In this document: one piece after another, positions 25,179 to 33,263 of the stretch
How positions within the stretch are numbered: the stretch's first letter is position 1
Layout: each line of letters begins with the position of its first letter
Source of the DNA: a virus
Taxonomy: Duplodnaviria; Caudoviricetes
Direction: 5' to 3' (one strand)
IMG/VR virus record: IMGVR_UViG_3300017548_000074
Coordinates: 1 to 38,698 of that record
Length of the DNA stretch: 38,698 nucleotides
Notes under the pieces: model-generated
Told to the model about the DNA's origin: nothing
Databases searched by the model: none
What the model saw: the letters and a program-made list of their open reading frames with translations, nothing else
Translations under genes and position numbers: made by a program

Positions 25179-25379
25179 GTCATCAGCCTCGGTTCCATGC
25201 TGCGTGAAACAGGTAAGGCCCGGCCTCCTGCCAGAGGACCGAGCCTTTGTCGAAGAACCGCCAAGCAGGGGCGGCGCGCCGTATGCATCCGACGACTTCT
25301 CGGGTGCGGACTAGCATCATGAACCTGAGCCCATGACTGCCGCGCGGGCCGAGCACCCGGCCACTGGCATGGCGACCGG

Positions 25380-25409
25380 AAAAGCCGCCCGATGATAAGT
25401 CGGACGGCT
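25380..25409 (-). terminator. Intrinsic terminator in the late leader
   Basis: AGCCGTCCGA-CTTATCA-TCGGGCGGCT followed by TTT on the minus strand. Confidence 0.6.
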
Positions 25410-25417
25410 GAAAATAA

Positions 25418-25470
25418 TTCGTACTCAGTGCGAAATATCGCTTGCGTACTCAGTACGAAAATGCGATAAC
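25418..25470 (+). promoter_or_regulatory. Promoter (-35 TTGCGT, TG-extended -10 GATAAC) overlapped by two palindromic operators TTCGTACTnAGTACGAA
   Basis: TTCGTACTCAGTGCGAA at 25418-25434 and TGCGTACTCAGTACGAA at 25443-25459. Confidence 0.7.
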
Positions 25471-25515
25471 AAATCACCGACCAATTCCGGTCGGGAACGA
25501 AAGGAGGTGAGGCGA

Positions 25516-25581
25516 TTGAAATTCCGGCTGACGCTGGTGATCAGGTTTAGGACTTGGCGGTTCACCCTGACCATCAGCTAA
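25516..25581 (+). CDS. 21-aa cationic amphipathic peptide MKFRLTLVIRFRTWRFTLTIS, not in ORF track
   Basis: Perfect SD AAGGAGGTGA at 25501-25510, TTG start, TAA at 25579-25581. Confidence 0.65.
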   Translation: MKFRLTLVIRFRTWRFTLTIS

Positions 25582-25659
25582 CAGAAACGGGGATCGGCCT
25601 TCGGGCCGGTCCCTCCGGAAGGAAGATCAGCCTCACCTCCTCTTCGAAGGGAATGTAGC

Positions 25660-26016
25660 ATGACACCTGACGAGTTCAAAGCGTGGCGGAAGGGCACCGG
25701 CCTGTCACAACAGGAGGTCGCGGACTTCCTCGGCGTTTCTCGCGGCTCGATCGAGAACTACGAGCGCGGCCACCGCCGCGAGGACAATCGGCCAGTCGAG
25801 ATTCCGGCGTCGATCAGCCGGCTCGTCACCATGACGGCCTACCTTGCGAAGGAAATGGAGATCACGCGGGACCGCATCGAACTGTTCCGATCGGGCAAGC
25901 TCGGCTACGTCGATATCCCAACCGGGAAGGACATCACACCGGAGGCGATCGAGGCAGACGAGCGGCGCCTTGCCGATCTGACGGCAGTCCTCGAAAGATA
26001 TAAACCCGCCTCCTGA
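25660..26016 (+). CDS. Xre/Cro-family HTH regulator with an extra C-terminal helical domain
   Basis: FKAWRKGTGLSQQEVADFLGVSRGSIENYERG. Confidence 0.88.
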   Translation: MTPDEFKAWRKGTGLSQQEVADFLGVSRGSIENYERGHRREDNRPVEIPASISRLVTMTAYLAKEMEITRDRIELFRSGKLGYVDIPTGKDITPEAIEADERRLADLTAVLERYKPAS

Positions 26017-26040
26017 TCAGGGGCGGGTCTGGACGGCGGA

Positions 26041-26178: not shown

Positions 26179-26859
26179 CTATCCCGCCACCTTCAGGAAC
26201 TGGTACGGGACGACGATCGTCTCTTCCGCCTCGTCGAGGCTCCGGAGAAGCACCCTGACCGTCTCCTGATCCTCCCACGCCTGCACCGTCGCGGCGCGGC
26301 CGACCTTCTCGCCCCAGATCAGTTTCACGTCTCGGCCGGCCGACAGCTTCTTGCGGGCGCCGCGCGCCGCCAGCTTCTTCCGTTCCCGAAGAAGCTTCTC
26401 CTCGACCCTCGAAAGCTGAGCGGCTCGGTTCTCGGCCTCGGCCCGGCTGTGCTGCTCGAACATGCGCAGCCGGAACAGATCCATGGGGCTGATCGCAAAG
26501 GGCTTGCCGCAGTTCGCCACCACGCCCTTGATGCCGGGCACGCCGGGGATGCCGGGCGCACCAACGAGGCGGGGCCAGTCGGCATCCGCGAGGTCGGCAA
26601 CGAAGAGATAACCCTTGAGTAGGGCGAACCGCCGCACCTCATAGAGGCCCTTCCGGTGGCGGTTGCGCACCACGCTGTACTCAGTCGGCATGTAGTAGGT
26701 GAACCCGCGATCCATCAGCGCCAGCTCAACCGCCGAGTGTTCCGAAGCTGTCCCGGAAACCACCCGGTAGCCGCGGCGCGTGTGCTCTGCGATCTCCGTC
26801 CAGAACTCGCGTTTCGGCCTTTGAGCGCCGGGGAGTGTCCTGACTGCGTACCACGTCAT
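26179..26859 (-). CDS. NusG-paralogue transcription antiterminator (late regulator, Q position)
   Basis: NGN motifs WYAVRT, YYMP, LLKGYLFV, VPGIKGVV; KOW-like C-terminus; last gene of the early-right operon. Confidence 0.85.
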   Translation of the reverse strand: MTWYAVRTLPGAQRPKREFWTEIAEHTRRGYRVVSGTASEHSAVELALMDRGFTYYMPTEYSVVRNRHRKGLYEVRRFALLKGYLFVADLADADWPRLVGAPGIPGVPGIKGVVANCGKPFAISPMDLFRLRMFEQHSRAEAENRAAQLSRVEEKLLRERKKLAARGARKKLSAGRDVKLIWGEKVGRAATVQAWEDQETVRVLLRSLDEAEETIVVPYQFLKVAG

Positions 26860-27239: not shown

Positions 27240-27451
27240 GCCGCATCCTCACGCTGATTGAAGAAGGTAATCACGTCCGCATCTTCGGACATGGTTTCGA
27301 ACTTTTCTCGCGTGAGGCGAGGCCAATTCGCCCCGCAGCCACCGCACTCATAGGTGAAGCCGCCACCCCCATGAATTTCCGAGGCCGGAAAATCAGGGTC
27401 GTCTACGTGCGTGCCGCAGAATGGACAGGGCTTAATTTCAACGTCGCTCAT
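27236..27451 (-). CDS. Lar-like zinc-ribbon protein
   Basis: EIKPCPFCG...ECGGCGA...FNQR pattern of Lar-family proteins. Confidence 0.65.
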   Translation of the reverse strand: MSDVEIKPCPFCGTHVDDPDFPASEIHGGGGFTYECGGCGANWPRLTREKFETMSEDADVITFFNQREDAA

Positions 27452-28248
27452 GCCGCCGCCTTTCGCTTCTTCCGGGTCTTCTGAAACCATGTCGAGGCGA
27501 GCCCCTGCCAAACCGAACAGCTATGCGTGGCGGCATAACGCTTCGCATCCGTCTCGGCGGCGCGGCCGAGGCCCTTGATCGCGTCGGTGAGGTCTTCGGG
27601 CTCGATCCAGCCCTTGAACTCGTCGTCCGTCATCAGGTGCTCAACAGCCTTGATGTGGTTTGCCGTGATCGGCGCCAGCTCGGCCTTGGCGAGGATTTCC
27701 AGATACTGCCGCGCGCGCATCGCTCCGCGCCGACCGATGGCCGCCTGTATGGCCGCGATGGCGATGCAGTCGCCGGGGCGGTAGCCGGCGGATGGATACT
27801 TCGGAATGCGGACGCCAGCGCGCTCGCACACCTGCCGGATCGTCTCGGCGTCCTCGTCATCGGCCGCCAGCTTTGCGAAGAACAGTTCCAGCGCGGACAC
27901 ATTCTTGCGGCCGGCATTGATGTCGACAAAGATCGACGCTTCCGACTGGATGTCCTCGGCCTTCACGATCACCGCCGGGACGTGCGTCACCTTCGGGTGC
28001 AGCTTCGCAGCCTCAAGGCGGTGTTGGCCGTCCGTCGCGTGGTAGCGGCCATCGGCCTGCGGCACGACGACTAGCGCACCGAACGAGCGCCACGAGAATG
28101 CCGACAGGATGCCGTCGACCCGGCTCGGATCGAGCGGGCGCTGATACAGCGGATCGGCATCGATCAGGGCCTTATCGATCCAGTCGAGCACCGGCACCTC
28201 GCCGGGATCAGGCAAGGCGCCCGCGTTGATGCGCGCGAGGTCAGTCAT
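27448..28248 (-). CDS. ParB/Srx-fold protein (DUF6551-like)
   Basis: YQRPLD...FSW..FG.LVV...YHATDGQHRLEAA...EASIFVDIN. Confidence 0.75.
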   Translation of the reverse strand: MTDLARINAGALPDPGEVPVLDWIDKALIDADPLYQRPLDPSRVDGILSAFSWRSFGALVVVPQADGRYHATDGQHRLEAAKLHPKVTHVPAVIVKAEDIQSEASIFVDINAGRKNVSALELFFAKLAADDEDAETIRQVCERAGVRIPKYPSAGYRPGDCIAIAAIQAAIGRRGAMRARQYLEILAKAELAPITANHIKAVEHLMTDDEFKGWIEPEDLTDAIKGLGRAAETDAKRYAATHSCSVWQGLASTWFQKTRKKRKAAA

Positions 28249-31778: not shown

Positions 31779-32116
31779 GCCGCCAAGCCCCTCTCCGCGA
31801 TCTTCGCCCCCTCGCTGACAAACCATGCCCAATCGGCTGCATCAGCGCCGCGGGGCGGGTTCGCGAGCATGAGTTTGGTGAGGTACTCGGCATCGGCTCG
31901 GCGCAATCCGCCGTCGTATTGAAGGATGGCTGCGCGCTCCTCGAACACCGCCTCCTCACTCAGGAAGACCGCGATGGCCTTGGCGTTCTCACGGATATAG
32001 GCTGACGCGCCCTCCGGCAGCTTTGCCGGATTGATGATTTCCAGCCTGCGCCCGTCCAGCAGGATATTGGCGCCGTGGGCGCGCACGCGGGCGATGATCT
32101 TGGCGGCGTCAGCCAT
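31775..32116 (-). CDS. Hypothetical replication-associated protein
   Basis: FEERAAILQYDGGLRRADAE motif common next to phage primases/helicases. Confidence 0.65.
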   Translation of the reverse strand: MADAAKIIARVRAHGANILLDGRRLEIINPAKLPEGASAYIRENAKAIAVFLSEEAVFEERAAILQYDGGLRRADAEYLTKLMLANPPRGADAADWAWFVSEGAKIAERGLAA

Positions 32117-33263
32117 CGATCTCGATGACCTCCCGGCTGGTATAGCCAAGATCGATCGCGATCTTCCGCCACCTGTCGGCCGATCGAAGGTTCCTCACCT
32201 TCTCCTGACTTTCACTTTCGATGCGGATTTTCTGGGATTCGATCACCTTGTCGCGCCCGGCGATCACCGCAGCGAAGCCGCCACTCTCGAACTCGGCCTT
32301 CATTTCGCGGTACAGCTTGTTCTCGGCGCGAAGCTCTTCGACTTCACGCTCAAGGACGCGGTTCGCCTCTTCCAGCTCGGCTATGCGCTGCTCGGCGGTC
32401 AGACCGTTGTACTCGGGCTCGGGCCTGCCGGCCTTCCGGTCAGCCTTGGCCTTCTCCTTGAAGGCTTCTCGGTCCTTGATGGCCTGCGGAAGCTTCTCGG
32501 CGGCGGCGGCTCGGAACGCCTCGTTCTCGTCATCCTCGGCGGCGGCCGGCGCGGGGTCGGCCCCGCTGTCCTCGACCTCGCCGGCTGGCTGTTCCTCGGT
32601 GGCGCCAGCGTCGGCAGTGGGCGATCCGATCGCACCCGTATTCATGACCGAGACGTTGCCATACCTGTTCCTGTAGAAACGAGGCTCACCGCCGGCTGCG
32701 CGGATTTCTTCAGCGCGCGCGGCCACATCTTCCGGCACTTCAGGTGGCGTTGGCGGCGTGGCTTCACTTGCGGTTCTGCAAGTGAGTTCATTCTGAACAG
32801 CCAGCACTAAATCACGGCTGACATGGCAAAGCTGACTGATCCGGTTGACCGACCACTGCGACCATTCCGCGTCGTTCAGCAGCGTTATGACGGCCCGGCG
32901 CTTGTCCTCGTTTGTCCGCCGAAGGCCATGATCGGAGTTGGCTCCGACGCTATGCAGCATCGCCTCCCGGCGGGTGCCCTGTCGAACTTCAACGGCGATC
33001 TTCTTCTTGCCCGCCTGAAGATGTGCGCGGTGGCGGTGGAAGCCGTCCGCCAGCCAGTACGTCTCGCCATCATGGAAGACGACCACAGGCGGGAAGACAA
33101 TGCCATCACTGATGTCCTCGGCGTACGACTGTACCACCGTCCCGTCGATGCCGGCGCGCGATTGCGTTCCGCCGTCGACGCGGATCATGCTGATGTCGAT
33201 GTTGCGGGGCTTGGCCGCCGAGCGCGCGGCCTTCGGCTTCACGAACTGCTTGGCGATGCTCAT
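32109..33263 (-). CDS. ParB/Srx N-terminal domain protein with HTH and coiled coil
   Basis: TQSRA...FPPVVVFHDG..YWLADGFHRHRA...ANSDHGLRRTNEDKRRAV. Confidence 0.8.
   Translation of the reverse strand: MSIAKQFVKPKAARSAAKPRNIDISMIRVDGGTQSRAGIDGTVVQSYAEDISDGIVFPPVVVFHDGETYWLADGFHRHRAHLQAGKKKIAVEVRQGTRREAMLHSVGANSDHGLRRTNEDKRRAVITLLNDAEWSQWSVNRISQLCHVSRDLVLAVQNELTCRTASEATPPTPPEVPEDVAARAEEIRAAGGEPRFYRNRYGNVSVMNTGAIGSPTADAGATEEQPAGEVEDSGADPAPAAAEDDENEAFRAAAAEKLPQAIKDREAFKEKAKADRKAGRPEPEYNGLTAEQRIAELEEANRVLEREVEELRAENKLYREMKAEFESGGFAAVIAGRDKVIESQKIRIESESQEKVRNLRSADRWRKIAIDLGYTSREVIEIDG

Follow-up and report, generated by a model that had tools for sequence, protein, structure and literature searches.

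A cassette on the plus strand of a phage genome encodes a 21-aa cationic peptide whose SD is predicted to be hidden by a long-range RNA helix. We consider it probable that this is a type I toxin-antitoxin (TA)-like prophage cassette, made of a predicted beta-hairpin toxin, an antisense RNA antitoxin and an optional Xre autorepressor. The type I reading is based on the order of parts known from ibsC/sibC, on the SD/anti-SD feature recorded in T1TAdb and on the activation of AapA1 by 3' processing. The window (the whole stretch of DNA analysed) is a complete virus record of 38,698 nt; the features of the cassette are given in Table 1.

Table 1. Features of the cassette and its borders in window coordinates
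Feature	Position	Strand	Evidence or remark
Terminator-like hairpin and T tail	25380..25408	-	hairpin 25384-25408, -15.3 kcal/mol
Operator 1, palindrome	25418..25434		predicted Xre site; one mismatch
Predicted sense promoter	25442..25470	+	-35 TTGCGT 25442-25447, 17-nt spacer, -10 GATAAC 25465-25470
Operator 2, palindrome	25443..25459		over sense -35 and spacer; predicted Xre site; one mismatch
Predicted antisense RNA, candidate antitoxin	25468..25645	-	inferred from promoter and terminator-like sites
5' hairpin of predicted mRNA	25477..25494	+	fold; terminator-like on minus strand
SD, 5' strand of long-range helix	25502..25513 (SD 25501-25510)	+	sequence, fold, covariation
21-aa cationic peptide ORF, TTG start	25516..25581	+	coding selection; candidate toxin
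GC-rich hairpin, UUCG loop	25589..25614	+	93.5% of cells paired, 28 sequences
Anti-SD, 3' strand of long-range helix	25630..25641	+	exact complement of 25502-25513
Predicted antisense promoter	25652..25679	-	-35 TTGAAC 25679-25674, -10 TACATT 25657-25652; family comparison
Xre-family HTH protein, 118 aa	25660..26016	+	Pfam HTH_3, E 3.4e-8
Hairpin at Xre gene end, T-tailed on minus strand	26004..26028		right boundary of cassette; X5 contig skip

Genomic setting and extent

The window contains integrase-like, terminase, tail and lysozyme genes, so that the phage is most likely temperate. The cassette opposes a run of minus-strand genes and is flanked by an HNH-terminase block on one side and a NusG-like antiterminator gene on the other. 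The latter gene (26179-26859, minus strand) occupies the place of a late-gene regulator, and adjoins the cassette in two other loci (L002 and L006) as well. The early region also encodes two ParB-like proteins (27448-28248 and 32109-33263, both on the minus strand) with matches to DUF6551 and ParB_N.

A contig with variant letters from one DNA run (X5) joins across the locus and omits 25363-26002, which suggests a related phage without the cassette or with other cargo in the slot. The minus-strand terminator-like site upstream of the cassette is possibly the 3' end of a long antisense RNA, or else the phage's own terminator. Such a site is found in 11 of 23 Xre-bearing and 1 of 7 Xre-less copies of the cassette, against 6 of 88 control windows, and lies 118-124 nt before the SD in 10 of those 11 Xre-bearing copies. 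An RNA run (X8) yielded a single 209-nt contig identical to the window at 25424-25632, and otherwise nothing of the phage in 20 kb; we do not count it as evidence, since it is unstranded, comes from one study, was found with this stretch and may be DNA.

A family of related copies

Many copies were found by the SD/anti-SD pattern. Matches of the pattern scans (59 viral loci, 119 metagenome loci from half of the collection, and 15 viral loci) were mostly due to chance, and members were kept by helix, ORF and profile. A DNA profile run over all loci gave 72 hits, three of them lacking the helix, and 31 distinct helix-bearing copies. With the window counted once, 23 of these copies carry the HTH gene and 8 do not; as the copies are related, counts across them are not independent. 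Most come from phages and metagenomes. The search upstream of Xre homologues that the preliminary description had proposed showed the arrangement of the cassette in all six viral loci found with the Xre protein alone, and in 16 of the loci of a wider Xre search (80 loci, 66 distinct). Further copies are L084, L291, L303 and L306, together with the decayed L008, L290 and L302.

The named carriers are Alphaproteobacteria (Shinella, Bosea, Azospirillum and Haematospirillum records); one carrier is a Caudoviricetes genome, in which the peptide is unannotated. Eight of 15 viral copies checked adjoin terminase or HNH genes, as in the window. Elsewhere, L075 lies in the opposite orientation between the terminase and portal genes, L201 lies beside host genes such as ruvX, and L306 is on a plasmid record. 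The cassette is rare among genomes of the class: an RNA model of the cassette finds it in 2 of the 150 searched there. For one order the count is likewise 2 of 150, with one match marginal. A pattern scan of 401 genomes gave four matches, none of which was confirmed by the RNA model, and the model exhibits no match in two Sinorhizobium records. The window DNA has no match in a search against plasmids and phages. In Rfam, the window gives two weak chance matches only (E 0.76 and 2.6) and no member reaches the gathering score. A literature search returned no paper on the cassette, and peptide motifs only in unrelated papers; the family may already be listed, unnamed, in the Fozo 2010 candidate tables, in T1TAdb, in small-gene catalogues or in subscription papers.

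Two variant arrangements were also observed. In a 33-kb Haematospirillum record (L291, 598-1128), an alternating 25-aa peptide and a hairpin are followed by a 55-aa hydrophobic ORF and then by Xre; this variant adjoins a RelE/ParE toxin gene. In a phage group (L098, L099 and L111-L137, upstream of 1201), Xre lies downstream of a GC hairpin, which is conserved, and of a similar -10-like sequence; no SD/anti-SD helix was seen there, and the element is possibly related to the cassette RNA.

The SD/anti-SD helix

The region 25470-25660 has a predicted fold of -97.8 kcal/mol (z -7.58), equalled by none of 200 shuffles. The 5' hairpin, the SD and the anti-SD given in the preliminary description are all read directly from the sequence, and a hairpin occupies this 5' position in every one of the 30 copies that are long enough. 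In the anchored register, all 31 copies pair at helix positions 1-10 and 12. Positions 1-8 were partly selected for in finding the copies; positions 9-13 were not. At the latter, 148 of 155 cells are paired, compared with 97.7 on average and never more than 117 when partners were swapped 2000 times, and 13 different 5-mers occur there. In a 28-sequence alignment, 90.8% of cells pair, against 82.1% when shuffled and at most 57.1% when slid, with both-side changes at 14 of 28 pairs. Sequence comparison supports an SD-hiding helix that covaries beyond the SD itself.

The UUCG-capped hairpin is present, at 25589-25614 rather than at about 25590-25613 as first described; we predict that it forms the 3' end of a trimmed, translatable mRNA. 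The stem described within the ORF forms in the window but lies outside the family consensus structure. The mean unpaired probability of the SD across 30 copies is predicted to be 0.02 in the full-length RNA and 0.61 in the trimmed form, and in the window it would rise from 0.01 to 0.46 once the anti-SD is removed. The ribosome site of Xre is predicted to be open in the window fold (0.84). All 31 copies have a central hairpin whose mRNA-strand form is more stable than its minus-strand form.

The peptide

The window peptide contains five K/R and no D/E, as first described, but its start codon is TTG, not ATG. Across the 31 copies the start is TTG in 12, ATG in 7, CTG in 5, GTG in 5 and absent in 2. 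Net charge is +5 and GRAVY 0.4 in the window, the charge ranging from +3 to +9 among the peptides. The alternating polar/hydrophobic pattern noticed earlier is borne out in the family: all 22 aligned peptides have hydrophobic residues at positions 5, 7, 9, 11, 14, 16, 18 and 20. A basic residue occupies position 4 in all of them and position 10 in 21, and 16 have G or P at position 13. The alternating hydrophobic positions and the G/P position suggest the register of a hairpin that turns over the two residues 12-13 and has a single hydrophobic face. Accordingly, we predict a beta-hairpin from the sequence pattern, the 21-aa peptide being too short for folding tools. Of 26 peptides, only 13 have a beta moment above that of shuffles (p<=0.05), and none has a helical moment that exceeds shuffles.

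Apart from the pattern, the peptide is loosely conserved (mean column identity 54%). pN is smaller than pS in 225 of 276 peptide pairs and in 13 of 14 close pairs, which supports a conserved ORF under protein-level selection. The window peptide exhibits no match in Pfam, NCBIfam, PHROGs or PDB, in agreement with the earlier view that it lies outside named families. An Atlas search with a 32-aa relative (L006) gave no usable match, and the peptide motif is not found among the entries listed in the S. meliloti Ribo-seq supplement (PMC10117765). The peptide exhibits no export signal or leader, so that the signalling role envisaged earlier appears unlikely.

Other peptides occupy the same RNA frame. 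Two copies carry hydrophobic 22-mers (L012, 719-784; L058, 766-831) of the usual type I toxin make-up, which have no family match, and three copies carry 32-mers. A class of 29-32-mers with an acidic tail (L006, 1821-1916; L009, 1324-1419; L303) likewise exhibits no family match. Single-sequence AlphaFold2 models the 32-aa peptide of L009 as one helix (pLDDT 86.8), and the long-type peptides may thus be helical. Five copies (L240, L241, L290, L008 and L302) have lost the SD, the start codon or the frame. Two of these, L302 and L008, are in the same genome (G002); their SD and start codon have decayed with the fold kept, and the Xre frame of L008 contains a stop.

Predicted promoters and antisense RNA

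The sense promoter that the preliminary description placed under the palindromes, with a predicted start near 25476, has the same spacing in relatives, but a strict promoter scan lists no sigma70 site on either strand of the cassette in the window. Both promoters proposed here consequently rely on comparison across copies. The predicted antisense promoter has a 16-nt spacer with an extended TG and overlaps the start of Xre; in the window it matches 8 of 12 consensus bases and is not listed by the strict scan. Its -10 lies 6-17 nt beyond the anti-SD in all 31 copies. On a sigma70-like score with our own weights, the site is above shuffles in every copy. The 8 Xre-less copies score 14.9 where shuffles give 9.1, and the 23 Xre-bearing ones 14.5 where shuffles give 9.8; 0 of 1000 shuffles reach these values. 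The promoter evidence from Xre-bearing copies is weaker than that from Xre-less copies, because in the former the -35 coincides with Phe-Lys codons of Xre, and 50 Xre genes without the cassette already score 12.2. The Xre-less copies, which provide the clean test, retain the site, several of them as a relic of the first Xre codons, and the -35 of L306 is not part of the Xre coding sequence.

The RNA predicted to start at this promoter is a candidate antitoxin; its 3' end is uncertain, at about 25580, 25468 or 25380. The earlier proposal of double control, by Xre autorepression and RNA fold-back, stands in that the fold-back covaries and the operators track Xre, but Xre is dispensable and the conserved minus-strand sigma70-like promoter 3' of the anti-SD had been missed. 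With this predicted promoter added as a third control layer, the cassette would possess the full anatomy of a type I TA system.

The Xre protein and its predicted operators

Conservation of Xre is limited to the N-terminal ~55 aa, and its resemblance to antitoxin HTH models is weak, below cut-off. The two near-perfect palindromes noticed earlier are confirmed: 0.06 are expected by chance and none of 100 shuffles contains two. A perfect promoter palindrome with arms of at least 6 is found in 18 of 23 Xre-bearing copies (1.9 expected) and in 0 of 7 Xre-less copies, L186 being too short. The half-sites track the recognition helix, with RGSIEN-like helices accompanied by CGTACT, most L-ending helices by CATACT and KRSVQL by GGCGAAA; this match is support and not proof, since related copies share both. 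It is likely, from these patterns, that Xre represses the operon through the two palindromes. Xre is dispensable, being lacking in 8 of 31 copies, 6 of which keep an intact peptide ORF and the fold; on a quick tree the Xre-less state corresponds to five changes in several places, with weak support.

Proposed mechanism and alternatives

What the comparisons show is conservation of the cassette, covariation of the helix, selection on the peptide ORF, joint loss of operators and Xre, and retention of the antisense promoter motif; transcription, trimming, the fold and Xre binding are inferred, and likewise the toxicity and target of the peptide. The full-length mRNA would allow translation of Xre and not of the peptide. 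A cut, or trimming back to the GC hairpin, would remove the anti-SD and free the SD. The antisense RNA would form a duplex with the mRNA over the peptide region and so deliver it to RNase III, as with SibC and IsoA1, and Xre would repress the operon. If the prophage were lost, or if stress or infection silenced the antisense promoter, the peptide would be made and would most likely attack the inner membrane. The helical cargo on the same frame and the decayed translation signals fit a costly, membrane-active product.

The same RNA controls might instead serve a non-toxic effector, one that uses strand pairing to bind a protein or nucleic acid of the host or the phage, for instance in superinfection exclusion or lysis-lysogeny control. 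The absence of a hydrophobic helix, the low GRAVY and the charge of the window peptide, as well as the conservation of the slot in temperate phages, agree with such a role, but we hold it unlikely: tight multi-layer silencing and the hydrophobic replacements in L012 and L058 suit a membrane-active toxin better than a specific binder, loose conservation beyond the pattern better suits a toxin, and decay strikes the translation signals. It is quite improbable that the antisense RNA turns the peptide on, by way of a short form that stops at the central hairpin, pairs with the anti-SD and thereby frees the SD. A short form covering the anti-SD only could indeed activate instead of silencing: the first bases of the antisense RNA repeat the SD strand of the helix, and the 10 nt after the central hairpin contain on average 4.5 T on the minus strand, compared with 0.3 on the plus strand. 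Yet G-U pairs favour the mRNA strand, the hairpin being weaker on the minus strand in every copy, and SibC, of the same geometry, represses (PMC4147584).

Very improbable, in our judgement, is a type II-like pair or leader control, in which the peptide is a binding partner of Xre, or the act of translating it determines how much Xre is made. Operators accompany Xre, and the peptide-then-Xre order resembles toxin-first type II operons such as higBA; this fits poorly with the Xre-less copies, six of them with intact ORF and fold, with the five changes on the tree and with the open ribosome site of Xre. Hardly any credence is due to the reading of the minus-strand promoter as a phage late promoter like pR' of lambda, with the hairpins as termination signals and the peptide as a passenger. 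That promoter does point into the HNH-terminase operon, just downstream of the NusG-like antiterminator gene, and about half of the Xre-bearing copies (11/23) have the minus-strand terminator upstream, but the promoter is kept beside host genes (L201) and on a plasmid record (L306), L075 has the other orientation, the related phage contig omits the whole segment, and the peptide ORF is under coding selection.

Beyond the type I reading that we favour, the cassette could be the first case of an amphipathic beta-hairpin type I toxin, carried by an exchangeable RNA frame into which phages load either beta or helical peptides, the first codons of the Xre autorepressor doubling as antitoxin promoter, and the whole acting as a lysogen addiction or abortive-infection device in Alphaproteobacteria. 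This bolder proposal is tentative; we regard it as possible rather than probable. The membrane-active type I toxins known to date are hydrophobic helices, and hydrophobicity is what searches for new ones look for (PMC8309996, PMC2887945); the design of such searches would therefore have let cationic beta-hairpins go unnoticed. The cassette also bears on the question of the range of type I systems, which may be narrow in reality or may only seem so for lack of detection (PMC5367252). If correct, our reading extends type I systems to alphaproteobacterial phages and adds a dedicated repressor to control by an RNA antitoxin. Each layer can be tested directly on the natural variants, which include copies with or without Xre, copies with beta or helical cargo, and decayed copies.

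Comparison with known systems

HigBA-like type II operons place the toxin first and the Xre antitoxin after it. The cassette resembles them in its small gene followed by Xre and in the palindromic operators over the promoter. In contrast to these operons, its Xre is dispensable and control is predicted mainly at the RNA level; a type II toxin is always paired with an antitoxin protein, whereas six Xre-less copies have an intact peptide ORF.

As a short, cationic, amphipathic predicted hairpin, the peptide resembles arenicin-1, which keeps its hairpin tendency and activity when linearised (PMC6627698). The likeness is an analogy only: arenicin-1 is an animal, secreted and disulfide-closed peptide, whereas the window peptide has neither cysteine nor signal sequence, and a PDB search gave no sequence match.

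In AapA1 and hok, 5'-3' pairing makes the full-length mRNA untranslatable and a shorter form is translatable (PMC5416894, PMC5367252); for AapA1, 3' processing brings about activation, after which the antisense RNA captures the message (PMC5416894). The cassette RNA is, by prediction only, likewise closed at full length and open when trimmed. Unlike the mRNAs of AapA1/IsoA1 and hok/Sok, it continues into a regulator gene, so that activation would need a cut or trimming, and the toxins are unrelated.

E. coli ibsC/SibC presents the same order of parts: 5' hairpin, SD, ORF, stop, GC hairpin, anti-SD and antisense promoter. No homology was detected: SIB_RNA (Rfam) has no match in 12 member-side loci (133.8 bits in a control locus), the cassette RNA model has none in ibsC/sibC, and the Ibs peptide models of Pfam and NCBIfam have none in the window peptide or 12 relatives. 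The cassette peptide is cationic and alternating instead of a hydrophobic helix (a hydrophobic alpha-helical TM segment is approached, in make-up, by L012 and L058 only), a repressor gene with operators is attached, and the carriers are phages and Alphaproteobacteria. Sib spans the whole ibs ORF (PMC8594479, PMC4147584); the cassette's predicted antisense promoter is in the same place as Sib's, the 3' end of the predicted RNA being uncertain. The scale is also that of Ibs/Sib, with ~140 nt from the SD to the anti-SD-side hairpin, a 19-22 aa peptide and the antisense promoter directly after the anti-SD. By the definition given in PMC8594479, a type I toxin is a protein of 20-60 aa encoded by a short mRNA, a range that includes the 21-aa ORF; long-distance SD/anti-SD pairing, which T1TAdb treats as a key feature of toxin mRNAs (PMC8594479), is what fold and covariation predict within the mRNA of the cassette.
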